A DNA stretch of 64,000 nucleotides, from positions 1,835-65,834 of the IMG/VR virus record IMGVR_UViG_3300047297_000146. One strand, written 5' to 3'. Positions 4,422 through 42,600 of this stretch are shown in pieces (the first letter of the stretch is position 1; each line of letters opens with the position of its first letter). This DNA comes from a virus (lineage: Duplodnaviria > Caudoviricetes). The notes beneath the pieces are model-generated. The model was not told the DNA's origin, did no database searches, and was given only the letters and a program-made list of their open reading frames with translations. The position numbers were made by a program, and so were the translations under genes.

Positions 4422-6620
4422 CTATACTCCTTCATTTTGACTTATGCCAGATTCAGGGCCTAAATCAGTCATCGCATACTGTTTACCAATATCAACCATC
4501 GCATAGTCTTCATTAGACTGTGCCTCAAGTCCAGCCTTTGCGGTTGCAAGCGCAATGTCTGCCTCAAGTTTTGCGGCTATCTCAGCCTTTATCTTTTCAA
4601 TTTCAACTTGCGCCTTAGCCTGTTCAATTTGCATATTGAACTGCATGACCTGTGCTTGTTGTCCTTGTTGTGCAGCTTGTGCTTCTTGCTGCATCATCAT
4701 TTGTTGTTGTTGTGCTTCAGCCATTTTGGCTTCTTGCTCATCAAGGTGATCAAGAATCTTAGTTGTTTCTGGCATGTTGACAAGTTGTACAAATAACCTG
4801 TTGGTAGCAGGATCCATTGGGTCACCAAAAACACCCATCTGTCGTAATGTGGCGTACTTGTTTAATCTCTGGTCTGGTCCTTCGTCCATACTAGATCCCG
4901 GCACATATACAATCCTATACCGCCCACCATTGCGCAGAGCATCAAAACGCATAACGCCTTGTTGAATTTGGTCTCTAGGTAACATTCCTCCTTCAATGTT
5001 TCCAACAAAGGGGACAATTGCAAACTGTTCAATTAAACTTACTTCCCACTCTTTAATACATGCATTACTAATTTCAATGTCAGCTCTTACATAAGAGTGC
5101 TGGGTGTTGTCAGCTTTCTGCAGCAACCTTACAGACTCGGCTGGCGTACCGGCTTGAGCCATACCTTGACTGACGTCGTGCAACCCTGCAACATCCATCA
5201 TGTCCTTTTCAATCATTTGCAATAACGGGAATAGGTCAGCACCTATACCTGGTGCTCGTTGCACAGCAGGTGGCCTACTACCACGGTCGTAATAAACCTT
5301 ACGGTAGATTCTATTTTTATCTTCAACCGTATCGCTTTCTTTGTCGTATGCATCAGCACCAACAGAAGACAAACGCTCAATCAGTAAGTAGTCTTTCTGT
5401 GCTTCAAACTGCTCAAGTAATCTACTGTAAATACGATTGTATGTACTCTGTAATGACACTAAGTCAAATCCAAGACTGTATCCATATGGAGTACCGGCGC
5501 GTGGTTGCCATCGCAAAGGAATAAATGGAAATGAATCCTTTTTGTTGTATGGCCATGGACCAGCATAAAGTAATGTTGATTGTGTAGACACAATGTATCT
5601 ACCGTTTTGATACAGCTTAGATGGCTTCTCCCAGTACTCGTAAACTACGGCTGCATTCTTGCGTTTCTCATTAGAGTTTGACGTAGACGATGAAGGTGGA
5701 ACCCAACCTCGTCCGCCAGCATTAGCACCATCAATGTACGCATCTACATATCCTGAGTGCTGACCAGTTAGTGCGTCTGCCTCAACCTTTTTACCAATCT
5801 CGCCGTATGAATCCACGAACCACGATAATGGCTTAATCATTGCATGAATCATCCAGCGGATGTCATCATCACGTTTGGCAGATGGGTCAATGTACACATC
5901 GAATGCTGGCAGGATCTGTTCTACAACATCTCCAACGCGCATCTCCATATGCCCAACAACACTCTGACCATCAACATCCATCTGTGGGACAACTTGTGTT
6001 TTGCGACTATCCCAATACACTTTTAAAAACGATGTACCACAAACACATGCCCAGCGTACACGCTCTTTAGTTTGCGTTTCTCTGCCAAATTTACGGTTGT
6101 AGTGCTTGGCAATAAAGTTTGCCTCGTCGCTGGCAGCTCTGTCTTGTGGACTATCAGATAATGGGACAGACGTTGCGTCTGGAGCACACTGCGTCAACTT
6201 GCCGACTACGCCGTCAATTAGTGGTCGTAACTTATTGACAGTCATATAGCGGTTTGGTTCGTTTGGGTTTTGAAGACGAATAATGTTACGGCCTTGACTT
6301 CCAATGCGTAACCACTGCCTACCCTCAAAGAATGCTGTTGCTAATGCCCATTCAAGCTCCATATCGGTTCTTGCTTTTTGTGCACTATCGAACTGTTGCT
6401 GAACAAACTTAGTGACCTTACGGGCTTCTTCTGGTTCGTCAAGTTCGTTAACTTTCCAGTCTTTAGGTGTTACATCTAGTTCTAAATTATCTTTATCGTC
6501 AAGTTGTGGATCATCCAGCGGAGTGGATCCAACCGTACCTGTATTATTCTTTTTTTCAAATGCAGAGATGCGTGGTTTACCATTTCTTACTGCCGCTGAA
6601 AGTTTACTGATGTCGTACAT
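4422..6620 (-). CDS. Portal protein (P22-like)
   Basis: 732 aa after terminase; FFEGRQW, TVNKLRPLI and CGTSFLKVYWD motifs; Q-rich C-terminal coiled coil. Confidence 0.9.
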   Translation of the reverse strand: MYDISKLSAAVRNGKPRISAFEKKNNTGTVGSTPLDDPQLDDKDNLELDVTPKDWKVNELDEPEEARKVTKFVQQQFDSAQKARTDMELEWALATAFFEGRQWLRIGSQGRNIIRLQNPNEPNRYMTVNKLRPLIDGVVGKLTQCAPDATSVPLSDSPQDRAASDEANFIAKHYNRKFGRETQTKERVRWACVCGTSFLKVYWDSRKTQVVPQMDVDGQSVVGHMEMRVGDVVEQILPAFDVYIDPSAKRDDDIRWMIHAMIKPLSWFVDSYGEIGKKVEADALTGQHSGYVDAYIDGANAGGRGWVPPSSSTSNSNEKRKNAAVVYEYWEKPSKLYQNGRYIVSTQSTLLYAGPWPYNKKDSFPFIPLRWQPRAGTPYGYSLGFDLVSLQSTYNRIYSRLLEQFEAQKDYLLIERLSSVGADAYDKESDTVEDKNRIYRKVYYDRGSRPPAVQRAPGIGADLFPLLQMIEKDMMDVAGLHDVSQGMAQAGTPAESVRLLQKADNTQHSYVRADIEISNACIKEWEVSLIEQFAIVPFVGNIEGGMLPRDQIQQGVMRFDALRNGGRYRIVYVPGSSMDEGPDQRLNKYATLRQMGVFGDPMDPATNRLFVQLVNMPETTKILDHLDEQEAKMAEAQQQQMMMQQEAQAAQQGQQAQVMQFNMQIEQAKAQVEIEKIKAEIAAKLEADIALATAKAGLEAQSNEDYAMVDIGKQYAMTDLGPESGISQNEGV

Positions 6621-6760
6621 TATAACCAGCCCTCGCGATCATATATTTCCTTTGAGTATATCTTTATGTTCTTTATGTCACTCAAGATACGATAAGACAT
6701 GACACTTGCAATGCATGTAGTTAAAGTGCAGATAAAACTTAATATTTCAATTACAACCAT
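6620..6760 (-). CDS. Small membrane protein (46 aa, not in ORF track)
   Basis: MVVIEILSFICTLTTCIASVMSYRILSDIKNIKIYSKEIYDREGWL fills the terminase-portal gap, with TAATG coupling to the portal start. Confidence 0.55.
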   Translation of the reverse strand: MVVIEILSFICTLTTCIASVMSYRILSDIKNIKIYSKEIYDREGWL

Positions 6761-8499
6761 TCATCTAGGTTCCTATTCTTTAACCACTCTGGCTTATTGT
6801 TAGCATTACGTTTTTCACGCTCATCTACTTCTGGACACCTAACGGGATGTTCTCGCCACATTAGCCCATAACGCAAACTATCTATAGCGTGATCATTTCG
6901 AGTACCTGAGTCAATTTCATCAGCATCTTTAGTGTGCGTCATTGTGTCAGATAACTGCTTGATAATATTTGGACAACCATTGCGGTTAATTACAAACTTT
7001 GGCTTGACATTACCATCAACCATTTCAGATGCCATAAGCCATTCTTTGACACGATTCCATCCTGCTTTACGATCCTTAACTGCTCGTACGGCTGGCAGAC
7101 CGCGCTCCCACCAGATCTCTACTGGATACTCACCTACTCGCTGATCAACCTTTTCAGGTGGAAACGTATTAGCCCAGTCAAAAGCAATAGCCTCTAGTTT
7201 AGTATTGTATGCACCATGCTCGTTAGCTTTATTTTTCGGTTCAGCTATTTTGTACTTTTTAAGAAGTTCAATTACACCGTCAACTTGCATGCTGCTGGTT
7301 TTGCCAGCCTCGTACCATTCATGTAAGACATACACATTCTCACGCTCATCACTTGCGTAGAGGATAAAACATGCTGGTGCTCCAGTGCCAAAGTCATGAC
7401 TTGCCCAGAATCTCCACCATGGTTGCACATCAATATGATCTACTACGTGCCAACCATTTCCATTACTGTCAATTGGTTTAAACTGCGGGAAAAATAAACC
7501 ACCTACACCAACATCGTGCTGGCACTCTCGTAAGAATGATATTAAACCAAAGTCGTCAATTTCTTTTTGGCATACCGCTAAGTTTTTGTGTTCCCATGCA
7601 GCACGTCCAGAGGTTATCTTCCAACCCATACGTCCATCATCTTTTTCAACAGGTTCATATATCAGGTCGTAGATTGCAGGAATAATTGGTGACTGTATAC
7701 GGTCTTGCAACATATCAAGCTCACCAGATAAAACACGGGACATAACGCTGTTTGCATGAATTCTATTCTGTACAAACACAATAGCACAGTCAACGCTTTT
7801 AGCCGGAAGAATGGTAGCCGTAATGGTTCGGATCTTTTTTTCAACAGCATTAACGGAGTCATCTAATTCGTCGATGTCGTCCAAGATAATCATGTCTGGT
7901 CGTAGGTGATCTAACTTAACACCACGAGCACCTGTGTCCAAACCAAATGCTAGAACATTAAAACCATTAGCCGTGCGTAGTTTTTGTGCATTCCACCCAC
8001 GAGAGAAACCATATTGGTTAACAGCTCGCTCAATGCCACAGCGCTCCATTACTCCAGCAATATCACTAACGTGCCTATTAGCAGCGTCTTGTGTTGCACA
8101 AACATATAAAAGAAAACGCCTTGACGCCTTTACTGCTAATCTACTGGATATTAATTCCATGGTGGTTGATTTGCCACCACCACGAAACCAACACTCAATC
8201 AAAGCAGGTGGAGAATTACCATTCTCTATACTCTCAGCCCAGTTCCATGCGCGTAAGTGATGGTCTCCCATTTTTGATGGTGCTGATTGTGGAGCGTAGA
8301 CGCGCAACCAATCCATGAACGGCATATCGTGCCCTTGTATAGGAAAGGCTGTACCTCCGTCAAACGCACCAGTGTCTGCGTACTCGTTTAAGTCAGCTGT
8401 TACAGCTTCCAATAAGGCAACTGATAAATCCTTGCCTGGGCGGACAAACTTCTTAAAGCCACGAGGAGTAGCGCGAGTATTAACTAATAACTTCTGCAT
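6751..8499 (-). CDS. terL: Terminase large subunit
   Basis: Walker A FRGGGKST, Walker B IILDD, nuclease motifs HDFG and DHAIDSLRY. Confidence 0.95.
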   Translation of the reverse strand: MQKLLVNTRATPRGFKKFVRPGKDLSVALLEAVTADLNEYADTGAFDGGTAFPIQGHDMPFMDWLRVYAPQSAPSKMGDHHLRAWNWAESIENGNSPPALIECWFRGGGKSTTMELISSRLAVKASRRFLLYVCATQDAANRHVSDIAGVMERCGIERAVNQYGFSRGWNAQKLRTANGFNVLAFGLDTGARGVKLDHLRPDMIILDDIDELDDSVNAVEKKIRTITATILPAKSVDCAIVFVQNRIHANSVMSRVLSGELDMLQDRIQSPIIPAIYDLIYEPVEKDDGRMGWKITSGRAAWEHKNLAVCQKEIDDFGLISFLRECQHDVGVGGLFFPQFKPIDSNGNGWHVVDHIDVQPWWRFWASHDFGTGAPACFILYASDERENVYVLHEWYEAGKTSSMQVDGVIELLKKYKIAEPKNKANEHGAYNTKLEAIAFDWANTFPPEKVDQRVGEYPVEIWWERGLPAVRAVKDRKAGWNRVKEWLMASEMVDGNVKPKFVINRNGCPNIIKQLSDTMTHTKDADEIDSGTRNDHAIDSLRYGLMWREHPVRCPEVDEREKRNANNKPEWLKNRNLDEWL

Positions 8500-9220: not shown

Positions 9221-9834
9221 TTACCGTATTTTGGTAATTTTGTCTTTAGCCTTACTAGCTGCGAGACCAGCCTTGTCTCCATATTTAGCAGCGTTATTCA
9301 ATAGGAGGGTTTGTGGATGCGTTTTGGAAACAAAACCTGCAAAATCTGTTATCTTTTTATCAACTGTGTTTACGGTTTTTTGTGTAGCGCTACCTTTATA
9401 CCAGCTTGGAGCTTTAGGTAATCGCCCACCAATGTTAATCGTATTATCTGCTAAGTCGTAAAGCATTGGGTTTACAAAGTCATCCATTGCCATGTCAGTT
9501 GCAAAATTGATTCCAGCTTTAAGAGGATTAATTACTTTTGGCAAAAATCCTAAAGAACTAGTACCTCCAGTTTCTGGTATTAATGCAGCAGATGCAGCGT
9601 TGACTGCCATCTCTTCTAGTGCATCTTTACCAAAGTTTGCAAGCTCAACTAACCCAGTTCCTACCCCGGCATTAATCTTATTTCGTATTCCCGGCTTAGA
9701 AAATATATCTGCTTGATCTGGTGCTCTATTAAAGTACCAAGATGCACCTTCAGATATTCCACTGAGTAAGCGCTTTGGATTTGCTTTTACATCGTTAACT
9801 TTTGACATAATATATTTAGTAAAATCATTTTCCA
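9221..9834 (-). CDS. Hypothetical protein
   Basis: ORF; start at MENDFTK preferred because of GGAGG upstream. Confidence 0.55.
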
Positions 9835-12800
9835 TTTTTCTTAGCCTCCTCAGCACTGAATCTACGTATTGCTGCTTTACCATATTCTTTTAAAGCTAAA
9901 AGAAGTACAGCGGCAAAACTCATTTTCTTGGCTTTTCCAATTAATCCGCCAAACCCCTTAGCTTCCGCGTCGGCAATGATTTTGTTTTGAACTGCTTCAG
10001 GAATCTTAATACCCTCAACGTCTGGTGTGTTATCTTTACCTACCGACTTTGCGCTAATAGAAGTGTATACTTCTCCTTCACGAAAATACCTCTTGCTTGC
10101 TCGCACACGTGAAACCAATTGTGTTACTAACTCACGTACATTCTTGGTATCAATCTTGCCTTCATTGACTTGTTTTACAAAATCTAAATAATCTCGTTTT
10201 CCAATCCAGAATTGCTTACCTTCATATTCAAATCCAAGCCGATTACCAGCTTGTACTGGAGCTGATTCAAATGTTAGCCGTTTTACTATGGGTTCTTTTT
10301 TAATTAATTTTTGATCAATTAACTCAGCATCCATTCCAGCTGGTAACATTCGCGATTGTAAAAATGCACCTCTGTTGTATAACGGCACTTCAATAACTTT
10401 TCCACCGATGCGGTATGTTTCTGATGTAGTAATATCTTTTGTTGTTGTTTTTCCGTCATCACCAGTTGTTGTAACTGTTGCCCCTAAAACTGTATATCCG
10501 TCTTTTAATTTTTTAGATTTTCCATCAGCCTCAGTGGTAAACGTGTTAGCTGTTTGATTTTTTAATATCTTTCCATTAGGGCCTTTGACCTCATAACGAT
10601 ATTCATTTTGGTTTTCTGTTAATATGTCAAGATACTCAACTGTTGTATTGTTAATTTTCCATTGTAATGCGTCTGCGTAATTTGGCTTGTTCGGCATCCT
10701 GTTTTCTCTTACCCATTGCGGTGCCTTAATTGTAAACTTTGTTGCAGCCGGTACAACGTGTCCACCCGGTGTCAAAGTAAGGGCACGGCTGTCTTTTAGT
10801 TGTTTGTTAATTTCTTGCCGTGACGGTCCTGACGGTCCTGACTTCTTATCAAGTTCATTTGGGACTACTTCTGACCAAAGTGGATAATTCCTTAATACAT
10901 ATATTCGTGCTTCATCAGGTAAACCATAAGTATATTCAACCCATTCTTTGGCATTCATGGATTCCCATTTACTATCAATAGATTTCCAGAGATCGCCAAG
11001 TTTTACTTTTGTAGCATCGACATCTAAGCCAATCGCTTGCGCAATCTCAACCTCTCGCGCTAATCGTTTTTTATCATTAGCTGTTAGCTTTTTGTTCCAC
11101 TGCTGGAAAGCTTTTCGTTGATCTTCGGGACTCATGTATACCGTAGGTAAGTTAGTCCGTTCTATCTTCTTAGCCGACTCTCCAAATAAAACTTGAAACG
11201 GGACTTTATTACTAGCAAGATTTGCTTGATTGTAAGTTCTTGATTCCTTAGTGTTTAGTCTGTCAATTTTATTTAATTCAAATAATGGAGACGCACCTAA
11301 CTGTGGAGCAACCGATTTAAGATGCTTATTTAAAACAAGAGTAAGCGTGTCTAGTCGTTGACTTTCATTGTCTGTTAGATCATTATCTAACGCTTTATTT
11401 TTTAATGCCTTATATTGCGAATAAACAGTCTCAAGCGGTAAATCTTTTCTTGTTCGCCAATCACGTGCAACTGATTGTGCAGCTTTTATTGCTGGATCAT
11501 TTGAATTAAATTCTAAAAGCAACCCAGATAATTCACCTTCTGATGTTGCTCTTTTTAACTTTTCCGCAAGACCAGATAACTTTTTAGCTTCGCCTATCTT
11601 AGCAACGCGACCAGTATCTCCTTGTTTTAAAGCATCTACTTCTTTCTGTAATTTGTCCTGTAGTGGTCGTAACTTTTGAAAAACACTATTGCGTAACGCT
11701 GCTACATCATCCTTTTGTGTTGTCAGTGAAACTTTGCCCTTGGCATCGAGTATTGAAATTACTTCACCAACTGCATCACTAGGCAACGTCTTAGGGATTT
11801 TATTACCGTCTGCGTCCGTTACTTCTTTGACGTCATATCCAAACTTTTGTAAGAACGCAGCTTTTTCATTGCGTATCTTGACAGTGTCTTCAGCAGACAT
11901 TTCAGTTGTATTGAAAAACTTAGATATGTCATCTTGAATTTCTTGTGGCGTACGTATACGACCAGATCCTTTGCCAGCAAAAGCATCAATTCGATCTGAC
12001 ATGCGACTACGTAATGTGTCAGAAAATGTCAGTAATGCCTTACTGGTTTTATTGCCCTCAATTAACTTTTTGAGATACTCCTCAGGATTAGCTCGACCAG
12101 AATCTTTTAATCCTTTCAACACTTCAGCTTTTAAAGCTACAACGTTTTGTTTGTTTGTTTCGTTAAGGTTTTCATTAGATGTTAGATCAAGTAAATCGCG
12201 CACTGCGCTAGATAGTTTCGTCGCTCCTCTATTTACTCTAGTGCCTCTGGTAATACCACCATATGTATTACCTTTAGTTGTACTATCAAGAACTTTTAAT
12301 GCTGAATTTAAATCTACTTCAAAATTCTTTGCTTTGACAATTGCTGTTTCTAAACCAGTTTCAATTTTTTGTTTACGCAGTGGGCGCTGGCTATTATTAC
12401 CTTGCTTTACATACTCGGTAGCCACAACTGATACGGCTGTAAATTGACCTGTCTTTGCATCTTTTTTCCAATCAAACGTAAACTTGACATTCTCGTTTAA
12501 TTTATGACCAATAGTTTTTCCTTTGTCATCTTTTATTTCTACTAAATAACTAGGTGCTCTGGCATTGTCATTTACTAATTCGTAGTCTGGATTAATTACG
12601 GTCCAGTTAACGCCTTGTGCGCTTGCGAGAAAACTATTAAATCCTAATCGTGTAGGGCGACCAACACCAATAGTATTTGTTTCACCTTCTCGGTAACGAG
12701 TTAATCCCTGCTCGTAATAAAATTGCTTATCACTTAAAGATAGGCTGTCAAATCCTTTATTACGAACTTGCTCTCTTAGAGTTCTATAACGTTCGCCGAT

Positions 12801-15800
12801 TTTGTCGTCAGCATTTTGTACTGCTCTACGGTCATCTAGAATCTGACTATGAGATTCTTCAGTTGGGCTATTATATGCAAGGTCATATATACGGCTTTGT
12901 AGTAATGATAGTGCATCAGTTCCTTTTTGCTGCGCCCTTACCTTCTTGCGTTCTAATGCAGCAATTGCTTGATCAATTTTTCTTAAACCCTCTGGTGTTT
13001 GTCCAGATTTTGTTTTTTGTGTTTGTAACTTAGCAATGTCGGCATCAGTATTTTTTACTACAGCTGCTTGAATATCCGCATCTCGTTTTGCAGCATCAAG
13101 TGATTTACTAGTATTTTCATACCAGCGTTTAGCAAATTCAACGTAATCGTAATTTCCATTTTTTTCAGCACTTGCAATTTTTGCCGACAGCACTGTTTCA
13201 ATTTGTTTTGTGTCACCAGCTTTTTCACTACCACCAATGTCACCACCAAGGGCTTCAACAGCTTTATTGTAGATTTCTTTTCCGGAATCAACTTGCGCTC
13301 TGTTTGTAGATTCAGATGGCCTAAGGCGTTCCGAAACACTAGTATCTGCTGGTGCTGCATATCCAGCAGCAATACTGGTCATTGATGTACGATACTTTTT
13401 AAATACGTTATCAATGTCTGCGTCAGATACCGTGCCTTTCATCCATTCAGTTGTTGCGGATTCTACTATTTGCTCTCTAATGCTAGATACCATAGTGTCA
13501 AACTTTACTTTGTCTTCTGGCTTAATATCAAACTTAGTTAATGACGATTTGATCGAGTCATCAAACGCATTTAATACCTGTGTCTTAAAGTTACCTTTTG
13601 GAGCTTCTCCGCCAGCTACTTGTTCTCCAATACTGTTTGTTACGCCAAGTATGGATTTTTTTGCGTCGCCAAATATTGTGTTTACAATATCCATACTTCG
13701 CTGCACTCTATCAAGCGCTGTTCTTTCAGTCTTGCTTGACCGACCACCTACGGCACCCGTACCTCCGGGTATTGCATCTGCATTTTGCATTACTGTTCCA
13801 GCAGAAGTGGTAGGTATGTATCTTGTTCCACCTTCAGGTGTGACTTCCATGGTGGATGCCATGGTCCTGAATCTTGCCGGAGTTCCTATTTGCAAAGACT
13901 TTAATATCTTGGCTTTTAAATCTGTCTTGTTGTAATCAGATGCCTTGATGCCAAACATCGATAAAAAGACGTCATCAGTTTTTTTATCTACAGCTGTTGC
14001 TTCCTCTAACCGTGAAGCATACAAACCAACTAACGATGACATCTGCTGGGGAGTCATCTTTATGTTTCCGTTGTATGGAACTTTATCTACTGCACTTTTA
14101 ATTAAATTTTGCAGATCAGTACGGTATCTAGAGTTTTTACCAGCGTAATCAAACATGCCTTGCAAGACTTGTATGCGACTGATCTGATCTGACCGTACTG
14201 GTAATAATGGTTGGTTAAAATCATTCTCACCTGTAGGTAATTTAGCAAATGATAAACCAGACTGCTCAACTGCCGTACCTTCTAAGTTACGTGCTTGTAC
14301 AGCAATATCATTAAGTACGCGCTTCTTGCTCATCCATGAAGACTGCTGTGCGCCACCGGGTATTACTGCATCAACAGCTTTAAAGGTATCTGTAATTAAA
14401 CTGTATGTACCTTTTGATGTACCACCTGTGGTGACACCACCTGTTTTTCCAGCGCGTACAGAACTAATGTCTGAAGTAATCTTAGGCACAATATCAGATT
14501 CAATATCGTAACTATTCATGCCAGCAGTTACGAAATCATTGACATCATCAATGCTTTGGAATAACTTGCGTCCGACTTGTTCTAGTTGTGCTTCGCTAAG
14601 ATTTAAACCTGAGGCCATTGCACCAGCAAGTTCTGGGCGAGATGCAATACGTCCACTGTTTGCACCAGTAATACCTTGTGGTGCTTGTGTTTGACTTCCA
14701 GATACGTTGGAGCTTATGTCATACATGTAAGGATCTTCCTTACCTGCACGTGTCATATCCCCTACGAGGGTGCCCTCCTTCTGACCGTATAAAGCCTTTA
14801 CACCACCGGGGGTTAATGCGGAATACACATCGTCGTTATCAGGATTATTTGGGTCAAAACGTAAAGCTGCTTCATCACTCAATGATGGATCAATATCCAT
14901 CGCTCCAGATACGTATCGCTTCATGCGTGTCTGGCCAAAGAAATCTTTTAACTCTTGTGGAGTAACTTGAGTAGTTGGATCAGCACCAGCTTGCCCACCC
15001 ATTCGCTTTACTAAGTCTTGGGCTTTTTTTGTATTAAATAAACCTTGACCATCAAACTGCTCGTAGGCATCATCAATTAACGCTTGACCTTGTGGCGAAT
15101 CCATAAACATTTGGACTTGCCGATCTTTATTGCCCTCAATAGTTGGTTTTGATAAATCGCCATATGCCGATTCAAATATGTTTAAAGTCTTGCGTGAGTT
15201 ATTTGCTGTAGGAGATCCAGATTGCGCATCTGTTCTAAGTTCCGTAAATCGTCCTTGAACGTAATCGTATAGAACACCACCAATAAGTTTTTTACGTACA
15301 GCTTCTGGACTTGCATCTGCCTTTTCTTGATCAAGTTCAACAAGTGATTTATTTGTAACGTATGGCTTGATAACTTTTGATGCTTGTTGAGCTAGATAGG
15401 TTTGCGTTTTAGGATTTCTAAAATCTTCATCTGTATAGTCAGCAAGTACTTCTAGATAATCTTTTGCACCAGTAACACCAGCATTATCACCCTTCGCGTA
15501 GGCAGTAGTTAAATACATAACGCCATTTGCGTATGCATCTGCCATCTTTCGCTTAGTTGGTTCGCCAGTGTTATATAACTCTGCAGTTCTATTAATTAAC
15601 TGTAAGAACTTGTCATCACCAATGACGTCTGTCCTGTTTGTTCCAGCAGTTTGTTTTGATGCGCCAGTAGCCTTACCAAGCCACGACTGCATCTTAGTAA
15701 TCAGATCAGCACCAGATGCTAGTTGACCAGTACTTTGAGAACGCAAAAACATGTCTAATCCAGCTGCATGTTTTCCCGCACTAGCATCATCTATTCCACC

Positions 15801-16142
15801 TACATCAATGCGAGTACTAAGACCTGCACCTGATGCATTAGGCATGTCTACTATTCCCTTAGATAGACGAGCCATAGGGTCATAATCAAACCCACCCATA
15901 GGAGGTAAACCCGGAAGACTAGGCAATCCGGGCATACCCTGTGGCATTGCTGGCGCTGGCTGTGTAGTCTGTGGCTGTTGACTCGCCATTGGCGGTATTG
16001 ATGGAAGAGACGGTGGTTGTACTTGTTGCCCCTGTGTTGCAGGCACGGGACTACCGCCAGCAGGTGTTGCTGGTTGCTCTTTATCTTTATCCGACATAGG
16101 AGCCGAATTACCCATAATCAAACTAGACAGTAATGACGCCAT
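9825..16142 (-). CDS. Giant hypothetical protein, 2105 aa (possible internal virion protein)
   Basis: Uninterrupted ORF with GGAGGT RBS and Pro/Gln-rich N-terminus; no catalytic motif recognised. Confidence 0.7.
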   Translation of the reverse strand: MASLLSSLIMGNSAPMSDKDKEQPATPAGGSPVPATQGQQVQPPSLPSIPPMASQQPQTTQPAPAMPQGMPGLPSLPGLPPMGGFDYDPMARLSKGIVDMPNASGAGLSTRIDVGGIDDASAGKHAAGLDMFLRSQSTGQLASGADLITKMQSWLGKATGASKQTAGTNRTDVIGDDKFLQLINRTAELYNTGEPTKRKMADAYANGVMYLTTAYAKGDNAGVTGAKDYLEVLADYTDEDFRNPKTQTYLAQQASKVIKPYVTNKSLVELDQEKADASPEAVRKKLIGGVLYDYVQGRFTELRTDAQSGSPTANNSRKTLNIFESAYGDLSKPTIEGNKDRQVQMFMDSPQGQALIDDAYEQFDGQGLFNTKKAQDLVKRMGGQAGADPTTQVTPQELKDFFGQTRMKRYVSGAMDIDPSLSDEAALRFDPNNPDNDDVYSALTPGGVKALYGQKEGTLVGDMTRAGKEDPYMYDISSNVSGSQTQAPQGITGANSGRIASRPELAGAMASGLNLSEAQLEQVGRKLFQSIDDVNDFVTAGMNSYDIESDIVPKITSDISSVRAGKTGGVTTGGTSKGTYSLITDTFKAVDAVIPGGAQQSSWMSKKRVLNDIAVQARNLEGTAVEQSGLSFAKLPTGENDFNQPLLPVRSDQISRIQVLQGMFDYAGKNSRYRTDLQNLIKSAVDKVPYNGNIKMTPQQMSSLVGLYASRLEEATAVDKKTDDVFLSMFGIKASDYNKTDLKAKILKSLQIGTPARFRTMASTMEVTPEGGTRYIPTTSAGTVMQNADAIPGGTGAVGGRSSKTERTALDRVQRSMDIVNTIFGDAKKSILGVTNSIGEQVAGGEAPKGNFKTQVLNAFDDSIKSSLTKFDIKPEDKVKFDTMVSSIREQIVESATTEWMKGTVSDADIDNVFKKYRTSMTSIAAGYAAPADTSVSERLRPSESTNRAQVDSGKEIYNKAVEALGGDIGGSEKAGDTKQIETVLSAKIASAEKNGNYDYVEFAKRWYENTSKSLDAAKRDADIQAAVVKNTDADIAKLQTQKTKSGQTPEGLRKIDQAIAALERKKVRAQQKGTDALSLLQSRIYDLAYNSPTEESHSQILDDRRAVQNADDKIGERYRTLREQVRNKGFDSLSLSDKQFYYEQGLTRYREGETNTIGVGRPTRLGFNSFLASAQGVNWTVINPDYELVNDNARAPSYLVEIKDDKGKTIGHKLNENVKFTFDWKKDAKTGQFTAVSVVATEYVKQGNNSQRPLRKQKIETGLETAIVKAKNFEVDLNSALKVLDSTTKGNTYGGITRGTRVNRGATKLSSAVRDLLDLTSNENLNETNKQNVVALKAEVLKGLKDSGRANPEEYLKKLIEGNKTSKALLTFSDTLRSRMSDRIDAFAGKGSGRIRTPQEIQDDISKFFNTTEMSAEDTVKIRNEKAAFLQKFGYDVKEVTDADGNKIPKTLPSDAVGEVISILDAKGKVSLTTQKDDVAALRNSVFQKLRPLQDKLQKEVDALKQGDTGRVAKIGEAKKLSGLAEKLKRATSEGELSGLLLEFNSNDPAIKAAQSVARDWRTRKDLPLETVYSQYKALKNKALDNDLTDNESQRLDTLTLVLNKHLKSVAPQLGASPLFELNKIDRLNTKESRTYNQANLASNKVPFQVLFGESAKKIERTNLPTVYMSPEDQRKAFQQWNKKLTANDKKRLAREVEIAQAIGLDVDATKVKLGDLWKSIDSKWESMNAKEWVEYTYGLPDEARIYVLRNYPLWSEVVPNELDKKSGPSGPSRQEINKQLKDSRALTLTPGGHVVPAATKFTIKAPQWVRENRMPNKPNYADALQWKINNTTVEYLDILTENQNEYRYEVKGPNGKILKNQTANTFTTEADGKSKKLKDGYTVLGATVTTTGDDGKTTTKDITTSETYRIGGKVIEVPLYNRGAFLQSRMLPAGMDAELIDQKLIKKEPIVKRLTFESAPVQAGNRLGFEYEGKQFWIGKRDYLDFVKQVNEGKIDTKNVRELVTQLVSRVRASKRYFREGEVYTSISAKSVGKDNTPDVEGIKIPEAVQNKIIADAEAKGFGGLIGKAKKMSFAAVLLLALKEYGKAAIRRFSAEEAKKNGK

Positions 16143-19510: not shown

Positions 19511-19591
19511 TCCCCAGTACGGGACTCGAACCTGTACTCTTTGCAGAAACGGATTTTAAGTCCGTCGTGTCTACCATTCCACCAACTGGGG
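19511..19591 (-). tRNA. tRNA-Leu(UAA)
   Basis: Acceptor CCCCAGT/ACTGGGG plus discriminator A; anticodon arm ACGGA-CTTAAAA-TCCGT; long variable arm; GGTTCGAGTCC with one T-stem mismatch; CCA not encoded. Confidence 0.9.
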
Positions 19592-20826: not shown

Positions 20827-20898
20827 CTCCTACTGCTGGGATCGAACCAGCGACCGTCCGGTTAACAGCCGGATGCTCTACCGCTAAGCTAAGTAGGA
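20827..20898 (-). tRNA. tRNA-Asn(GUU)
   Basis: Acceptor TCCTACT/AGTAGGA plus discriminator G; anticodon arm TCCGG-CTGTTAA-CCGGA; GGTTCGATCCC; CCA not encoded. Confidence 0.93.
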
Positions 20899-21552: not shown

Positions 21553-21846
21553 AATCGAAAGTATAGCATGGTACAGAGTGTAGCAAAACCGTATAGTCAC
21601 TGCGTTCTAAAAGGATCTTAATGTTTTTTCTACGGGGAGAAACAGTTTCTCCGGTGGGAGAAATAGATAGAGGATAGCTGAGAATATATGTTTTGGAGTC
21701 ACTACTGTGCCGAGCCAACCGGGGCACCCCCTTGCCATGCCGGGGTCTAACCCCCGGTACCCCACCCCACGTGACTGTGCCCTAAATCCCGGTCTACATA
21801 CATGGTGTGGACGCCCTTCGGGGTCGTCCGGTTTACATTCCCTTTA

Positions 21847-21910
21847 TTATGTTCACATAATCATTCACCCGATTATGTCCGACGATGGCAGGTTATAGCC
21901 GAAAACACAA
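21847..21910 (+). ncRNA. Hammerhead ribozyme HH1, type III, variant core
   Basis: UGUUC^ (cut after 21854); stem I ACAUAAUC/GAUUAUGU; core CCGACGA (U4C) plus extra U; stem II GGC/GCC; GAAA; stem III AACA. Confidence 0.7.
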
Positions 21911-21927
21911 AAGGAAAACTAGACATA

Positions 21928-22278
21928 ATGGCAACGACAACGACAACGCCCGCAACGCCAGCGGTATACGCTGGCGCACAAACGGCGTACACTAAAGCGC
22001 TACAAAGTATTGACAATCACGTATCATTGAATATGCTGATTACAAAGTCAGTAGCAAACCGGATTATACAGCCCGTTGAATGTGCATACATTCAAGGTAT
22101 CAAACGTCGAAAAACAACCATTGACGCATACAAAGCGGTTATGCAAGTATTATCCGCTAAACTTGCGCCTGTGCTAGATACTACCGGCAAGGATTACGAT
22201 TCTATCGCCGCCAGCATAAAGGGATTGACGGCGGACGCGCTTGGGCAGGCAATGCTCGGTGTAGACGGGGACGCATAG
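21928..22278 (+). CDS. Early hypothetical protein
   Basis: AAGGA RBS then ATG at 21928 (MATTTTTPATP...). Confidence 0.7.
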   Translation: MATTTTTPATPAVYAGAQTAYTKALQSIDNHVSLNMLITKSVANRIIQPVECAYIQGIKRRKTTIDAYKAVMQVLSAKLAPVLDTTGKDYDSIAASIKGLTADALGQAMLGVDGDA

Positions 22279-22286
22279 TCCCCGCA

Positions 22287-22321
22287 GGCACCCGGTGTAA
22301 GATACCGGGTGCCACTTTTTT
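22287..22321 (+). terminator. Intrinsic terminator
   Basis: GGCACCCGGT/ACCGGGTGCC followed by ACTTTTTT. Confidence 0.7.
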
Positions 22322-22353
22322 CGGAAAAAACAAAAACAAAAGGATAATGAGTC

Positions 22354-22641
22354 ATGTCATTCGCACAACACACACAATCGGAATCACGTCCTGTTACACA
22401 GGTGGCAATATGGAAAGTGTTCACCATGTACGGACCAGACGCAGCAAGTAACGGAACAGACTTTGTCTACCAGATGTCAGACTGGACGGGTGGTCGCTTG
22501 CTCAATGACCTACTCCACGCAGCGAAGGGGCACACAGACACGCCACTGACGTTTGAAGACGCATACGTCATTGCAACATATCAGTGGAAGGGCAACCCTG
22601 ACACGTTCGAGTGGAAGGGCGCCATGTTCGAGAAGTGTTGA
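22354..22641 (+). CDS. Early hypothetical protein
   Basis: A-rich leader with AAGGA RBS; 95 aa. Confidence 0.65.
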   Translation: MSFAQHTQSESRPVTQVAIWKVFTMYGPDAASNGTDFVYQMSDWTGGRLLNDLLHAAKGHTDTPLTFEDAYVIATYQWKGNPDTFEWKGAMFEKC

Positions 22642-22674
22642 TGTCAATGGGGGGCGCAAGCCCCCTACCTTTTA

Positions 22675-22734
22675 ACGTGTCCTCATTGGGTGATGCCAAT
22701 GAGCTGACGAGGCCAGTCTACAGGCGAAACACGT
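22675..22734 (+). ncRNA. Hammerhead ribozyme HH2, type III
   Basis: ACGUGUC^ (cut after 22681); stem I CUCAUUGG/CCAAUGAG; CUGACGA; extra G; stem II GCC/GGC; GAAACACGU. Confidence 0.88.
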
Positions 22735-22760
22735 AACACACACAAAGGAAACTAACCGCC

Positions 22761-23003
22761 ATGCAATTCAATGGCACTTTCATGACGTCTAATCGTCGCT
22801 TCAGCTTCTCAATCACAACCCCAACTGCATTGACGCAGACAACGATCAAGATAACGAGCGCACAAGGTGAGTTCTCGGTAACACGTCACATTGACACCTA
22901 CGCTGAACTCGAAAAGAACATGATTGCGGTAGCGCGTATCATCGGTGGCGGTGATGACGCAAGCGTATTGGCGTTGGCTCGGATGATTGGAGAAAGCAAG
23001 TGA
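22761..23003 (+). CDS. Early hypothetical protein
   Basis: AAAGGA RBS; 80 aa. Confidence 0.65.
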   Translation: MQFNGTFMTSNRRFSFSITTPTALTQTTIKITSAQGEFSVTRHIDTYAELEKNMIAVARIIGGGDDASVLALARMIGESK

Positions 23004-23131
23004 AGAAGTTCCTGAACAATGGTCTGGTGCGGTTTATCCTTGATGGATTGACTGCAGTCATTATCGTCGCTGGTTTGCTGTTCATCTATTGGGGGCTGTC
23101 AACACTCCCGATGCATAGATACGGTCACTAA
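23000..23131 (+). CDS. Small single-TM protein (43 aa, not in ORF track)
   Basis: GTGA overlap with upstream stop, GGAG RBS; MKKFLNNGLVRFILDGLTAVIIVAGLLFIYWGLSTLPMHRYGH. Confidence 0.6.
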   Translation: MKKFLNNGLVRFILDGLTAVIIVAGLLFIYWGLSTLPMHRYGH

Positions 23132-23162
23132 GAACTACGGGGTGGTGCTAACGTGCCACCCC

Positions 23163-23221
23163 AACGTGTATCTATAGGGTGATTCCTATGGACTGATGAG
23201 GCAGTCAAGCCGAAACACGTT
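23163..23221 (+). ncRNA. Hammerhead ribozyme HH3, type III
   Basis: AACGUGUA^ (cut after 23170); stem I UCUAUAGG/CCUAUGGA; CUGAUGA; stem II GGC/GCC; GAAACACGUU; canonical core. Confidence 0.93.
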
Positions 23222-23262
23222 TAAAACCTTGTCAGATATCAAAACAAACAAAGAGGTATCCC

Positions 23263-23886
23263 ATGGATAACCAGTTCCGTTTCAACATATCCTTTAGCCC
23301 ATACGGGGCTATCCCGTCACCCGTCGTGTACACCGATGCAAAGCATGATGTAGATAACATCTGTGCTGCAATCCTCGGAGAATCATTACGCCGTCGCACG
23401 TACTATGACGCTCAGGTTGAAGAGCGTCCATACGTAGACGAATATGCAATGAGCGATGCTCGTATGTATCTGCAATGCGCATTCATGTGCGTAGTACAAG
23501 AACAGTACGGTGAGGCGCTTAACTGGTATGACATGGCACACAAGAACTTCTGTGGCTACATTGACCCAGCCACCGTATCCACAATGCACGGCGCCGTTTG
23601 GATGGTGCGTGATGATGAGAGTTGGGGTGTGTACATGAAGGCTGATGTTGTTACCGGGTTTGGTAACACAACTGCCAACATTAAAATCGCCGACATCGAA
23701 CCGCACCCATATAAACCGGGCAAGTACACAGCCACTGTACTCGACCGCATGGAAGAGTTGAGGTATGGACAAGACGGGTGGTTTGCGCACCTTGATAAAT
23801 CAAGAGCTGCATACAAACAACAACAGATCGATGCTAAGGGCATCGACTTTACATACGATGACGATGTTGAAGGAGAAACAAAGTGA
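23263..23886 (+). CDS. Early hypothetical protein
   Basis: GAGGT RBS; 207 aa. Confidence 0.7.
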   Translation: MDNQFRFNISFSPYGAIPSPVVYTDAKHDVDNICAAILGESLRRRTYYDAQVEERPYVDEYAMSDARMYLQCAFMCVVQEQYGEALNWYDMAHKNFCGYIDPATVSTMHGAVWMVRDDESWGVYMKADVVTGFGNTTANIKIADIEPHPYKPGKYTATVLDRMEELRYGQDGWFAHLDKSRAAYKQQQIDAKGIDFTYDDDVEGETK

Positions 23887-24323
23887 AGAAGAAGAGTTTA
23901 TTGAAACGCATTGAGACCATTTGGCTTGCCAAGCAGGTCAAGAACGAGATGATCAACTTCCACAAGGGTGTTGATGAGTGCGTTAGGGATTTCGGCTACA
24001 GGAAGGAGGAGATGTTGGACTTCCCTAAGTGGCCATACGCACTCAAGACCCCAGACGGGTCTTACGTTTGCACACCCAACCCAGACAAGAGACTGATGCT
24101 GTGTCTGTTCCTTACTGCTGATGAGGCAGAACAGATGAAAGCAATGTTTCATGCGTCAACTGGGAATGACTGCGAGGTTGTGCAACCAGAGCACAACTTC
24201 CCATTCAGGAAGGACATTGTCCTTATGATCAAGGACTGTGGGTTTGAGATGTGGTACGGCACATATCGCAGTGTGTACCACCTGCAAACCATCAAGAGTA
24301 TGGAAGCCACTGGGCTTCTTTGA
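23883..24323 (+). CDS. Early hypothetical protein
   Basis: GTGA coupling, AGGAG RBS; 146 aa. Confidence 0.7.
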   Translation: MKKKSLLKRIETIWLAKQVKNEMINFHKGVDECVRDFGYRKEEMLDFPKWPYALKTPDGSYVCTPNPDKRLMLCLFLTADEAEQMKAMFHASTGNDCEVVQPEHNFPFRKDIVLMIKDCGFEMWYGTYRSVYHLQTIKSMEATGLL

Positions 24324-24383
24324 GACGAAACTTCTCCCATGCGGAGAAGTCTGTGGGACATAGCTACCCCACACTGATGAGTC
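24324..24383 (+). ncRNA. Hammerhead ribozyme HH4, type II
   Basis: GAC-GAAA-CUUCUCC/GGAGAAG-UC^ (cut after 24351)-UGUGGG/CCCACA-CUGAUGA-GUC; canonical core. Confidence 0.92.
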
Positions 24384-24423
24384 AGGCTTAACAAGCAGCT
24401 GCATAAGAACAAAGGAAACACTT

Positions 24424-24630
24424 ATGAAAAACACAAGCGAGATTCTCGCACTTCAGACAGAAATCAGTGAACTATCACGTGGCATGTACAAAACATGGTC
24501 ACGCACGGGTAACACACTACGTGCCAATGAGGAAACCCTCAAGAGTCTAACAAGGAAGCTAGACCAAATGATTCGTGATGCACACAATGCTGACGAAAAA
24601 GCAGCACGTAGCAGGAGGTTAGGTTACTAA
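24424..24630 (+). CDS. Early hypothetical coiled-coil protein
   Basis: AAAGGA RBS; 68 aa. Confidence 0.65.
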   Translation: MKNTSEILALQTEISELSRGMYKTWSRTGNTLRANEETLKSLTRKLDQMIRDAHNADEKAARSRRLGY

Positions 24631-24995
24631 TGGATTTACGCTCTTTCAAAACACTGAAGACAATACTCCAAAGCCCAAAAGAAAACATTGAGGCGATGGA
24701 CCCCATTGGTTATGACATCGACATGAGAACTAAACGTCATACACAACTAGAGGTCAATGAGTTTAGAGAAGATGTTGATAACTACATGAGACTTCATAAT
24801 GAGGCAAACTTTCGCGGGTACATGTACCCACCCACTACATGCGACAACCACAAATGTCCAATGTACAACGGGCAGAGATGGACATTTGTTTTCTACATGG
24901 ATGGTGAGGGATACAAACACTCATGGTCATTCAAGTCAGATGACAACTCCATTGATACCGAGTGCGGTGACCACTCATGGTTACCGGGTATCTAA
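24630..24995 (+). CDS. Early hypothetical protein
   Basis: TAATG coupling, GGAGG RBS. Confidence 0.65.
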   Translation: MDLRSFKTLKTILQSPKENIEAMDPIGYDIDMRTKRHTQLEVNEFREDVDNYMRLHNEANFRGYMYPPTTCDNHKCPMYNGQRWTFVFYMDGEGYKHSWSFKSDDNSIDTECGDHSWLPGI

Positions 24996-38895: not shown

Positions 38896-39675
38896 CAATG
38901 TCACTGTTTTGTTTACATCGTTGATTGTAATATAACATCCCAACCAAAGAGATAAGTCCCTGACACCAATGTAACGCTTGCCATCTCGCGTAATCAAAGG
39001 TGCAGGGATGATCTCACTACCCCACATAGCGCCATCGTCTGTCGCTTTCAAATTAACAAGCACCTCATGTGGTGTAAAAAACATGTTCAAAGCATTACGC
39101 AATGGAGCGTACACACGACTTGCATGGTTAATACATTCAACCTGACGATTCTTTACTTTTAAAACCCACTCTACATCCTGCTGTATCATTTTTGTCCAAC
39201 GAATAAACTTAAGACTATCAGCAGTTCTATTTGCATAGACATTAGGACGCCGAGCAACTAAGTATCCATTTCGACTACCGTTGTTATTACTGTTGCCTTC
39301 TATGCTTCCAATAACCCCATCAGCACCTTCAGTGTCAACAATGCCAATGTGATATGCGTCATCACCACGATGGCACACAAACAAGTCTCCGGCAGCCGGA
39401 GATGATGTCATTAGCTGTCGTTTTCTTGCCCAGCTATAAACCACGTCACAATCAGCAGTAATAGGCACAGGCCAGTCAATATTATGAGCATCTTGAAACT
39501 CTTTGCCGATAGCAGAAACAAATGAGCAACACCAAAAGCTTCCTAATGGAACGTTGCTTTGACGATTCCATTTATCAATTAAATCCCCACGATTACTACC
39601 AAATGGCTCTTCCGACACACCAACATATTTATTAGCAAGAGTCAAAAACTCTTTTGCTAAATCATTACTATTCAT
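38884..39675 (-). CDS. Endolysin: CHAP domain plus putative cell-surface-binding domain
   Basis: WCCSFV, HIGIV and IEGNS (CHAP); C-terminal YAPLR and YIGVRDL repeats resemble the copper-amine-oxidase N-terminal domain. Confidence 0.8.
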   Translation of the reverse strand: MNSNDLAKEFLTLANKYVGVSEEPFGSNRGDLIDKWNRQSNVPLGSFWCCSFVSAIGKEFQDAHNIDWPVPITADCDVVYSWARKRQLMTSSPAAGDLFVCHRGDDAYHIGIVDTEGADGVIGSIEGNSNNNGSRNGYLVARRPNVYANRTADSLKFIRWTKMIQQDVEWVLKVKNRQVECINHASRVYAPLRNALNMFFTPHEVLVNLKATDDGAMWGSEIIPAPLITRDGKRYIGVRDLSLWLGCYITINDVNKTVTLSKP

Positions 39676-42600
39676 TATTGCCTCCTCCGTTATATTGCAT
39701 TAGTGCTCTGGTCACATTGTTCAATGGTAACCGTATCTTCTGCTTCTCTTTTTCTCTAGCTTGAGATTCTGATGCTGCAATTCCAAACGTGGCGTTACTT
39801 GGATCTTTAACATCCCAGCCAGTAAATATGTTTTGAGGTTCTTTGCGCATCATTTCAAAAATATTTGGATAGTCGTACCAGTCTTTAATCATGTACGCAA
39901 AACGTCCAAATGTCATACTACTGTTACCTACTTGGACTGGCTCCCTGTTAACCATCCTGTATCCCTTAGGCTCATACATAACGTTAAACCCTAATAGCTT
40001 TGGAACAGTAGCCTTCCACCATAATTCATTAGCTTGTTCCTTACTTACTCGTAATTGATTAGGAACATTACCAGAACGAATCATTTGATCTATAGACATA
40101 TTCTGCTTAGCTGCTTCAGAGAACATAGCTAACTTTAATAAGTCTTCGTAATAAGATCTCTGATGAGCAAGCGTCATTGTGTCCATTGCTAATCGACTTT
40201 GCTGTGGAAATAAATACCCAGTCGGATGGAAATAAAATGGTGCTCTTACATCATTTTCTACAGCAACTTTTAATCCAGAATCACGTTCAAATGTAGGCAA
40301 ACCCTTGAATGACTTGCCAGTTAAATTACTAATGATGAATTGACCACCATTGTGGATTTTGTTTTTAATTAACTGTTTTGCTAATCCATTAAGAGCAGCT
40401 TCAGTTTTCTCAATTGGTCCGTAGTTTTCTTGAGAGAAAGCTTCAGCAAGAGGTTTTATATTTTGAGCAAGACGCCCAAGGACTGGTAACTGTACAGTCC
40501 AGTTGTCGTTTAATTCAACATAACCTAGCCTCTTACTCATAACATCTAGCCAACCAGTCTTATCTTCTTCTTCATCTGGTCGTTCTCGTTGATGACGATA
40601 GAAGTTAGCTGTTGCAGTTATCGCACCAACAATAGCCCACGTCGCTAACGATTTGCCAATATCTGCCTTCCTTTGCCGAGTAGCCCACTCTGTACCGTAT
40701 TGCTCCATACGTAAGTCACTCTCAATATCAAAGACATCTCCCTTTAACCACCAAGGTCCTTTATCTGTAGCAACTCTAGCCCATTCATTAATAGACTTTT
40801 TAGCAGCAGTTCCCGGTCCGCTAAATCCGTAGTACTGATTAAAATTCCTTGTGTATGACGGTGCAGTCATAAAGTAATTAAACACACTGGAAAGAGATCT
40901 CCAAATAGGAGCCTGTGTTTTACTCTTAGCGTGAGATCCAATTCCAATTTCTTTAGCCACTAACGATATACGAGCCTTAATATCTCGATCAATTTCATAG
41001 TCTTTTAAATCTACATTGTTAGGATCTAACTGACGTTCTCGTGCTCGTTTGACAGTAAACAATGCCTGTTGAAGCATAGATAAATCAAGAATCAACTGAC
41101 GAGTCATTTCAGCTCTGCGCCATAGTGGCACAGTAGCTCCAAGGACACCAGCTGTAAATACGTTTTCACGTTCACTTTCCCATGGAGTATCTATGATTGA
41201 CTTATATCGTCCCGGAGATGCAAGCATGTTTGCCTTTGATCGTCTATACCAGTCAGAGTAACTACTCTGCATGTAATACGTGTCAATCAACTCAGACATA
41301 CTAATAGGTGTACCCATGCTGTGTCTTGCATTGAATCGATCAACTGTATGGTTCATGATGAAATCGTAATAGCGAGAGTCTAAATTCATAGCGCTATCAG
41401 TCCATTGATTACCACCCGCTAACCTTCTTTGTTGACGAGAGCCATGCCACAGACTACCAAGTACTAAGCCAAGGTCTGCGCTAGAAAATGTAACAAGGGA
41501 TGGAGCGGATAAAGCAAGAGCTTTAAAGGTTTGATAAGGAGCACGTGCTAGTAATGAACCAAGCTGAATTGCAAATGATGATAAGTCAAGACCTAACACA
41601 CCTCGGAATATCTGCTGCAATGGACTCAGTACATATTTATTTACGTTGTATGCTGCCTCATTTACCTTTGGTGACATTGAGAAATAAACATCGTTATCTT
41701 TACCGTCTAATGTAATTGCTTCACCATCTTTGACGGAAGTCTCATAAGGAGTTCCCTTCAATGGGTCAAGAACTAACTTGTCATATATGTCACTTGAAAC
41801 TTGCAATACAAGGTTATCTTTTCCACCAGACTGAAGCATGCCACCTTTTGTCTTAGGGTCCCTATGATAAGTAACTGTTTCAGGTACACGATATGCTCGT
41901 TCCTTAGCGTCTATAGCAAGATCATCGAGTGCACCCTTAGTTGATTCAACGTATGGGTCTTCTGAATCATTGACGTGTAATGCGCTTTGCTTACGTAATT
42001 CGGGAATGTTATCCGGATTACCATCAAAGTAACGTGGACTACTTGAGAACCAAGTGCCAGTGCTTGCATCCTGCATTAAGTCAGATTCATTGTTGAACAA
42101 CATCTTGTGCCCAACCTTATTGAACTCAGCATGCTTTGGATTATCAGTATTCCTGTCTTGCGCTAACAATAACTTAGCAACATGATATTCCTCTTGCAAC
42201 ATACGATTGTCAATAATGCCCTGACGCTTTTCTTCAACTACAGTCATAGCACTTGAACGCTCAAATGGATTCAAGACCATGTCCATGAGACCAATAGGCA
42301 TCTGAGTACGATAGTTATCTGCATTCTGCCAGTTGTCACTTGTATCTACAAAAGACCATTTAGCTTCTTTGCTATCATACTCACCCTTAATAACATGCAT
42401 GCCGGTGTTTGGAGTTGGCACATCAGGATCAAATATTGGTGCATTTAATTCCGATATCTCAGCAACAGATATCGGCAACATAAAGTAAATGGGTTCACCA
42501 GATAGGTATCCGTAACTAGCTGCGCGTTCACCAGCTAATGCAACAAGTGCATCATTAACCTTTTCGACTCCATCAAATCCAAATAATTGTTTAGCATTAA

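Follow-up and report, generated by a model that had tools for sequence, protein, structure and literature searches.

We found that two type III hammerhead motifs, HH2 and HH3, bracket a two-gene cassette in a rightward operon of small phage genes. Judged by their sequences, both are real hammerheads, and self-cleavage is predicted for each. Together with a putative type II hammerhead and a further candidate, HH1, they form a cluster that probably punctuates the transcript of the operon, the identical stem III of HH2 and HH3 being a leftover. The stretch of DNA analyzed, hereafter the window, is 64,000 nucleotides long and corresponds to bases 1835-65834 of a virus record of 65,834 bases that is rated complete. 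The features of the operon that bear on this reading are, in order:

21846..21908, plus strand: HH1 candidate, type III-like, in the leader of the first gene; predicted cut after C21854
22287-22313, plus strand: strong terminator-like hairpin, 12 pairs followed by a T-run, in the gap between genes one and two of the operon; no ribozyme adjoins it
22649..22674, plus strand: GC hairpin GGGGGGCGCAAGCCCCC followed by UACCUUUUA, directly before HH2; listed as terminator-like (the weaker site, 22649-22665)
22675..22734, plus strand: HH2, type III hammerhead, predicted cut C22681/C22682 (from sequence, covariance model R1, and covariation)
22761..23003, plus strand: 80-aa ORF with homologues in all five lineages; no Pfam or PHROG family
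23000..23131, plus strand: 43-aa ORF with one hydrophobic stretch, the peptide being conserved in relatives; no Pfam or PHROG family
23139..23162, plus strand: 10-bp GC hairpin GGGGUGGUGC-UAAC-GUGCCACCCC, abutting HH3 (from sequence and predicted fold)
23163..23221, plus strand: HH3, type III hammerhead, predicted cut A23170/U23171 (from sequence, model R1, and covariation)
23263..24323, plus strand: two ORFs, of 207 aa and 146 aa, that separate HH3 from the type II hammerhead; no Pfam or PHROG family
24323..24391, plus strand: putative type II hammerhead starting at the stop codon of the 146-aa ORF, predicted cut after C24351

The record carries phage genes for a portal, a large terminase, and a DnaB-like helicase. 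The best relatives of the portal in a tblastn search were actinobacterial phages, with an identity of 25% or less, and a blastn search with positions 21800-24700 against a collection of cultured phages returned zero matches. The small ORFs of the operon stand in a row on the plus strand from about 21900 to beyond 27000, and the GTG start of the 43-aa ORF overlaps the stop codon of the 80-aa ORF. Pfam and PHROGs searches with eight small proteins from around the ribozymes assigned none of them to a family; a 68-aa protein among them gave a sub-threshold match to Dor1. Rfam at its gathering thresholds reported two tRNAs only. Two tRNA genes lie on the minus strand (19511-19591 and 20827-20898), just upstream of a divergent region that is followed by the ribozyme-bearing operon. 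Also on the minus strand are giant ORFs of 4264 aa (39668-52462) and 2105 aa (9825-16142), for which PHROGs gave no match at E 1e-5.

In both HH2 and HH3, stem I (8 bp) and stem II (3 bp) are closed and stem III is open, as expected of the type III topology. In HH2, the 5' strand of stem III (ACGUGU, 22675-22680) pairs with the 3' strand ACACGU (22729-22734), and C17 lies at 22681. Stem I (22682-22689 with 22696-22703) is closed by the loop GUGAUG, the core CUGACGA (22704-22710) has a C at the free position 7, and an extra G at 22711 stands after A9 and before the GCC/GGC of stem II; GAA occupies 22726-22728. HH3 consists of stem III AACGUGU (23163-23169) with ACACGUU (23215-23221), A17 at 23170, stem I (23171-23178 with 23185-23192) around the loop GUGAUU, the core CUGAUGA (23193-23199), stem II GGC/GCC, and GAA. 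Each motif has what a type III core requires, namely CUGACGA...GAAA with U16.1-C17 in HH2 and CUGAUGA...GAAA with U16.1-A17 in HH3. The letters and coordinates that the initial annotation gave for the two ribozymes proved correct when the sequence was read again. Alignment likewise confirmed its observation that stems I and II have diverged between them but stem III is identical. Four of the eight pairs of stem I differ, every one of them still paired, and stem II differs in register and loop length, whereas the 6-bp stem III ACGUGU/ACACGU is common to both, HH3 adding a seventh A-U pair. The piece that would be released between the two predicted cuts, 22682-23170, is 489 nt long and carries the 80-aa ORF and the 43-aa hydrophobic ORF, as had been stated.

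Viral and metagenome contigs, scanned by pattern and by protein, yielded four further lineages with the same two-gene cassette, which makes five in total. Their ribozymes compare as follows, a match meaning that the stem III of HH2 agrees with that of HH3:

Window: reference; HH2 stem III ACGUGU/ACACGU; HH3 stem III AACGUGU/ACACGUU; matched
L008 type, three contigs: 80-aa protein 88% identical to that of the window; HH2 and HH3 stem III letters as in the window; matched
L014 and L010, other clade: HH2 stem III UGUUAUGU/ACGUAACA, 8 bp, both strands changed; HH3 stem III AACGUGU/ACACGUU; unmatched
L038: 80-aa protein 95% identical to that of L014; L014-type HH2 stem III; GC hairpin and T-run at 13460-13500 on the minus strand, no HH3
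L068: 80-aa protein 71% identical to that of L014; L014-type HH2 stem III; GC hairpin and T-run at 695-735, no HH3

The Rfam type III model (RF00008) was weak on both motifs: HH3 scored 16.2 bits against a cut-off of 48.5, below threshold, and HH2 was not listed. We therefore turned to a covariance model of our own, R1. It was built from 15 sequences, all of them type III hammerheads from unrelated phage contigs and none a member of the HH2/HH3 family. In an unfiltered search of both strands of the window, R1 scored HH3 at 32.5 bits (E 3e-7) and HH2 at 29.3 bits (E 2.8e-6). These were the only significant matches in the window, the next best reaching 10 bits. Among seven distinct HH2 and HH3 sequences of relatives, 96.3% of the cells in stems I and III are paired and 8 of the 16 pairs change on both sides; controls in which the pairing was slid gave 49.5% or less. 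In stem I of HH3, for example, a G.U pair has become A-U in L008, and L014 shows a UC/CU swap. Stem II, 3 bp in both motifs, is invariant within each ribozyme. The stretch of HH2 from C17 to C15.2 is identical in five of five lineages, and the gene adjoining it has an identity between the two clades of 49-55% in protein and 64-68% in DNA. Because the stems covary and the HH2 body is invariant beside a diverged gene, both motifs appear to be under selection as hammerheads.

These data bear directly on the alternative that one or both motifs are inactive relics, in which case their spacing and their shared helix would be meaningless. The low standing of both motifs in the Rfam type III search agrees with that idea, and so does the irregular stem II of HH2. 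This irregularity, which can be drawn either as an extra G after A9 or as a bulge of one base, also counts as a point against punctuation; an extra base after A9 is likewise found in several other phage hammerheads from our own descriptor scan. Relics would, however, hardly be expected to show compensated changes in stems I and III with every core position intact, a ribozyme body that stays the same next to a gene that does not, and significant scores for both motifs with an independent phage model. We therefore hold this alternative to be highly improbable. A pattern scan of genome contigs for the HH2/HH3 body yielded zero stretches. A match to CTGATGAGGCAGAACAGATGAAA at 24118 was rejected as a ribozyme, because it falls within the 146-aa ORF and lacks helices.

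A span of 1.7 kb holds HH2, HH3, and the type II element, and the HH1 candidate is 0.8 kb further upstream. All four elements are intergenic and on the coding strand, the arrangement that defines a phage hammerhead cluster. The core of the HH1 candidate reads CCGACGA, with C in place of the expected U4, and an extra U follows A9. It was not significant with R1 (9.2 bits, E 2.8). The candidate is also found in L014 and L038, where its stem I changes are compensated, and its 3' strand does not match the 5' strand of HH2. The type II element scored 36.3 bits with Rfam RF02276, for which the cut-off is 37, and is predicted to contain a pseudoknot between loop 1 and the bases that immediately follow stem II on its 3' side. 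Both this pseudoknot and stem I covary among relatives (AGCU:GGCU in the window, AGCCU:AGGCU in L014 and L038, and UGACC:GGUCA in L008).

HH2 and HH3 are each immediately preceded by a GC hairpin, which ends no more than 8 nt from stem III. In L014, L038, and L068, the homologous hairpin and T-run upstream of HH2 runs into the 5' strand of the ribozyme. The hairpin before HH3 is present together with HH3 (in the window, L008, and L014) and absent together with it in L038 and L068. This architecture extends beyond the family. Among the matches listed, a GC hairpin ending 8 nt or less before stem III was found at 77 of 93 unrelated phage type III hammerheads, as compared to 79 of 930 positions drawn at random from these loci. 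The recurrence of the hairpin suggests either that the upstream product needs a structured 3' end or that the short stem III needs a stacking partner.

The first of these needs is readily placed in a scheme of transcript punctuation, the reading that we prefer and regard as reasonably probable. Each ribozyme would cut itself during synthesis of the polycistronic RNA. The upstream product would then end in a stable GC hairpin and a tail of 6-7 nt with a 2',3'-cyclic phosphate, and the downstream product would carry the folded ribozyme body at its 5'-OH end, ahead of a ribosome-binding site. Without the hairpin, the upstream RNA left by a type III cut would end in a bare tail of 6-7 nt. The ribozyme would act as a processing site or a substitute for a terminator, and may in this way provide each block of genes with its own ends and its own stability. 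Counted against this scheme are the two terminator-like hairpins, the strong one at 22287-22313 and the weaker one at 22649-22665, which may limit the amount of transcript that reaches HH2.

A different role for the shared stem III had been suggested in the initial annotation, namely that the 3' end of the excised piece rebuilds a chimeric hammerhead across the junction and that the RNA circularizes. The geometry for this is right. The 5' end of the excised RNA comprises the complete HH2 body, and its 3' end consists of the 5' strand of HH3 with A17>p, A17 being an allowed cleavage-site base and the one used by HH3. In both the minimum-energy and the centroid fold predicted for 22682-23170, ACACGU (nt 48-53) pairs with ACGUGU (nt 483-488) into a 6-bp chimeric stem III and stems I and II are intact. 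As the predicted fold pairs both ends in this manner, the chimeric hammerhead can be formed on paper. The matched stem III might then be functional, with the 489-nt RNA sealed at its ends either by the rebuilt hammerhead or by a ligase of the RtcB type from the host. The product would be a circular two-gene mRNA or, alternatively, a "spliced" RNA that skips the cassette. The latter appears as feasible as the circle, because the upstream RNA ending in AACGUGUC>p could pair over 7 bp with the HH3 body, as read from the sequence. RtcB does join 2',3'-cyclic phosphate and 5'-OH ends, according to one report (PMC8782182). A search for the family (PF01139) was positive in 10 of 14 control genomes and gave zero matches in the phage record.

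Several properties of the excised RNA speak against a functional circle, which we consider quite unlikely. Because 489 is a multiple of 3, an endless frame around the circle was considered; it was rejected, as the three frames contain 9, 4, and 12 stops. Thus, the circle adds no coding novelty. The equilibrium of the hammerhead reaction is usually on the side of cleavage, and a resealed junction would rebuild an active hammerhead, so that the circle is expected to be cut again. In viroids and retrozymes, a rod-like fold conceals the ribozyme in the circle. The predicted fold of the excised RNA, in contrast, is branched, with an intact ribozyme and a z of -2.3, and contains no rod or other special fold that would conceal the ribozyme in the window lineage. 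Re-cutting has been described for other ribozyme classes in cyPhyRNA-seq, where adapters ligated by RtcB were cut off again if the 3' fragment of the ribozyme kept its active structure (PMC8782182).

The comparison with relatives weighs further against joining of the ends. If the match served circularization, it should be kept in homologous phages. Instead, stem III is matched in two of the five lineages, unmatched in one, and lacks its partner in the two that have no HH3, and the cassette is conserved throughout. Of the two matched lineages, L008 is uninformative, since its protein is 88% identical to that of the window and its stem III letters are the same. In L014 and L010, the chimeric helix is reduced to A-U, C-G, G.U, and U.G; when the L014 piece is folded in silico, its 3' end pairs at a site 5 nt farther along and does not restore the core. 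HH2 stem III has changed by compensation in one clade while HH3 has remained unchanged, which indicates that each ribozyme keeps its own helix. Thus, the idea of a functional circular mRNA was not upheld: the match persists only between close relatives, re-cutting is expected, and the phage has no RtcB. The interpretation in the initial annotation is partly supported: self-circularization is physically possible in the window lineage, but it finds no support among relatives and is unneeded to explain the locus.

The same comparison revealed what can occupy the slot of HH3. Because L038, whose cassette protein is 95% identical to that of L014, and L068 carry a GC hairpin with a T-run at this place, a ribozyme and a terminator appear to be interchangeable there. 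In addition, since L038 and L014 are 95% identical in the gene just upstream yet differ at the slot, a mosaic boundary is likely to coincide with it. It could be argued from this switch, between hairpin plus HH3 and terminator behind nearly the same cassette protein, that hammerheads are the boundaries of exchangeable gene modules. Each type III copy would travel with its downstream genes, and open-helix letters common to the whole pool would keep ribozymes working after recombination or would reflect a conserved leader, with no joining of RNA. In the window family, however, the HH3 body moves as a unit with its hairpin and 5' strand, so that compatibility across modules is unneeded, and a recombination junction within a ribozyme was not seen. 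We regard this alternative as unlikely.

We then considered whether the identity of stem III reflects chance, descent, or function. Of the 93 unrelated phage type III hammerheads among the matches listed, just 1 has a 5' strand that pairs over at least 6 bp with the 3' strand of HH2. Because such pairing is rare, the HH2/HH3 match is more than chance. This rarity is counted against punctuation and in favor of RNA joining; it also goes against exchangeable modules, as ACGUGU is not among the open helices that are frequent outside the family. HH2 and HH3 have the same letters in loop 1 (GUGAU) and the same first letters in loop 2 (AGUC), and the two are therefore probably paralogues, as far as their letters tell. 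At the rate of stem I, where half of the pairs have changed, the absence of any change in the four free pairs of stem III has a probability of about 0.06 by our own arithmetic; this equal-rate estimate is suggestive, being weakly compatible with drift and not decisive. Shared ancestry of the ribozymes, which the initial annotation had offered as an alternative, is the simpler account and explains the shared loop letters as well. Thus, the stem III identity is best read as a leftover of common origin that does not represent a selected device.

To place this match among those of other phages, we surveyed hammerhead neighbors with our own descriptor script, which is uncalibrated. The loci were obtained with two motif patterns, which gave 57 and at least 120 stretches. 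The survey covered same-type neighbors up to 4 kb apart, leaving out type II copies, mixed-type neighbors, and more distant pairs; identical copies were collapsed, and the counts ignore kinship of contigs. It yielded at least 90 unique type I and at least 99 unique type III hammerheads and at least 55 unique same-type neighbor pairs. A pair was scored as matched if the closing helix formed between the neighbors was as long as the ribozyme's own. The results, all among the matches listed and to be taken as a lead, were:

Type I: neighbors matched 11/29; cross-locus 347/7916 (4.4%)
Type III: neighbors matched 10/26; cross-locus 16.3%
Type III outside the HH2/HH3 family: neighbors matched 8/23; cross-locus 18.2%

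Neighboring hammerheads of the same type thus share their open helix above the cross-locus rate among the matches listed, and their closed helices are no more alike in matched than in unmatched pairs (0.63 vs 0.61 and 0.75 vs 0.71, among the matches listed). This excess is counted in favor of RNA joining and against punctuation, which in its simple form does not predict it. On the other hand, most same-type neighbors are unmatched, with 18 of 29 pairs of type I and 16 of 26 of type III among the matches listed, and in L129, L130, and L097, neighbors differ by compensated changes that keep the helix of each ribozyme. Open helices also recur from locus to locus, as exchangeable modules would predict: UUAAC occurs at 10 loci, ACAGA at 18, ACGGA at 13, and ACAGC at 12, among the matches listed. 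In line with such modules, the copies in L028 and L036 and those in L037 and L052 are conserved in their flanks outside the open helix too. As a lead drawn from these letters, the recurring open helices and conserved flanks may be explained by a leader that is conserved, or by a gene pool that is shared, no less well than by RNA joining. In some clusters, all same-type neighbors share the open helix and differ in their closed helices, with GCUGU/ACAGC in type III and GGUUAA/UUAACC in type I. Clusters that share an open helix were found in L028 (minus strand, 5877-7668), L037 (minus, 877-2014), L052 (minus, 6557-7900), L147 (plus), L163 (plus), and L167 (minus).

The farthest-reaching interpretation of the survey is that, in the window lineage and in a subset of phage clusters, same-type neighbors keep a common open helix while their closed helices drift, so that the ribozyme or a host RtcB could put cut pieces back together in a different order. 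At the present locus, this would give a reversible choice among a linear mRNA, a 489-nt circle, and a skipped transcript. We see this as very unlikely.

Transcript punctuation, our preferred reading, is in keeping with what is known of such loci. Clusters of phage hammerheads around small non-conserved ORFs have already been described and were read as sites where long transcripts are processed (Perreault 2011, PMC3088659; PMC6765202; PMC6155905). The present locus is best read, from its sequence, as a member of this known kind of phage element. It resembles the clusters of Perreault 2011 (PMC3088659, PMC6155905, and PMC7761336); here, the types are mixed (III, III, and probably II), and the elements are intergenic, on the coding strand, and set among small genes without a family. 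Perreault et al. 2011 raise the possibility of circular or spliced products from clustered phage hammerheads and say that such products were sought and none were detected, with data not shown (PMC3088659), which also argues against a functional circle. A literature search for a hammerhead-made circular mRNA in a phage found no report. In the accessible parts of the phage-hammerhead literature (PMC3088659, PMC6155905, and PMC7761336), we found no statement that neighbors have their open helix in common or that type III copies follow a GC hairpin.

The locus can also be compared to the small circular RNAs of plants. As in Avsunviroidae, plant satellite RNAs, and retrozymes, same-sense hammerheads would cut both ends, and the 5'-OH and 2',3'-cyclic phosphate would lie within one ribozyme that can be rebuilt. 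In those RNAs, the ends can be closed by a ligase of the tRNA-ligase or RtcB kind (PMC5680766, PMC7229834, and PMC6765202 for both points). The units are repeats with identical ribozymes, are non-coding or replicate through RNA or reverse transcription, and are folded into rods that hide the ribozyme. In contrast, the ribozymes here differ in two helices, and what they enclose is an ordinary mRNA of two genes. A rod is not predicted, and the match is lost among relatives.

A parallel in function may be found in the early transcripts of T7. There, RNase III sites lie between genes, the long transcript is cut, and the upstream product ends in a hairpin. Here, by comparison, the predicted cut would be made by the RNA itself and would leave 5'-OH and cyclic phosphate ends with no host nuclease involved.

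The role of phage hammerhead clusters has been a question since 2011, with processing of long transcripts as the favored view. The locus described here is a small test case for this question, as it combines two active-looking ribozymes, a 489-nt product, and natural variants in which stem III is unmatched (L014) or HH3 is missing (L038 and L068). If circles or skipped transcripts were found, this would be the first case in which a phage makes a circular or spliced mRNA by means of hammerheads, and re-joining in other orders would amount to protein-free, hammerhead-based RNA splicing in phage. The comparison among relatives argues instead for ribozymes that serve as self-contained punctuation and are exchangeable with terminators, and we propose as a rule that type III copies are directly preceded by a GC hairpin.
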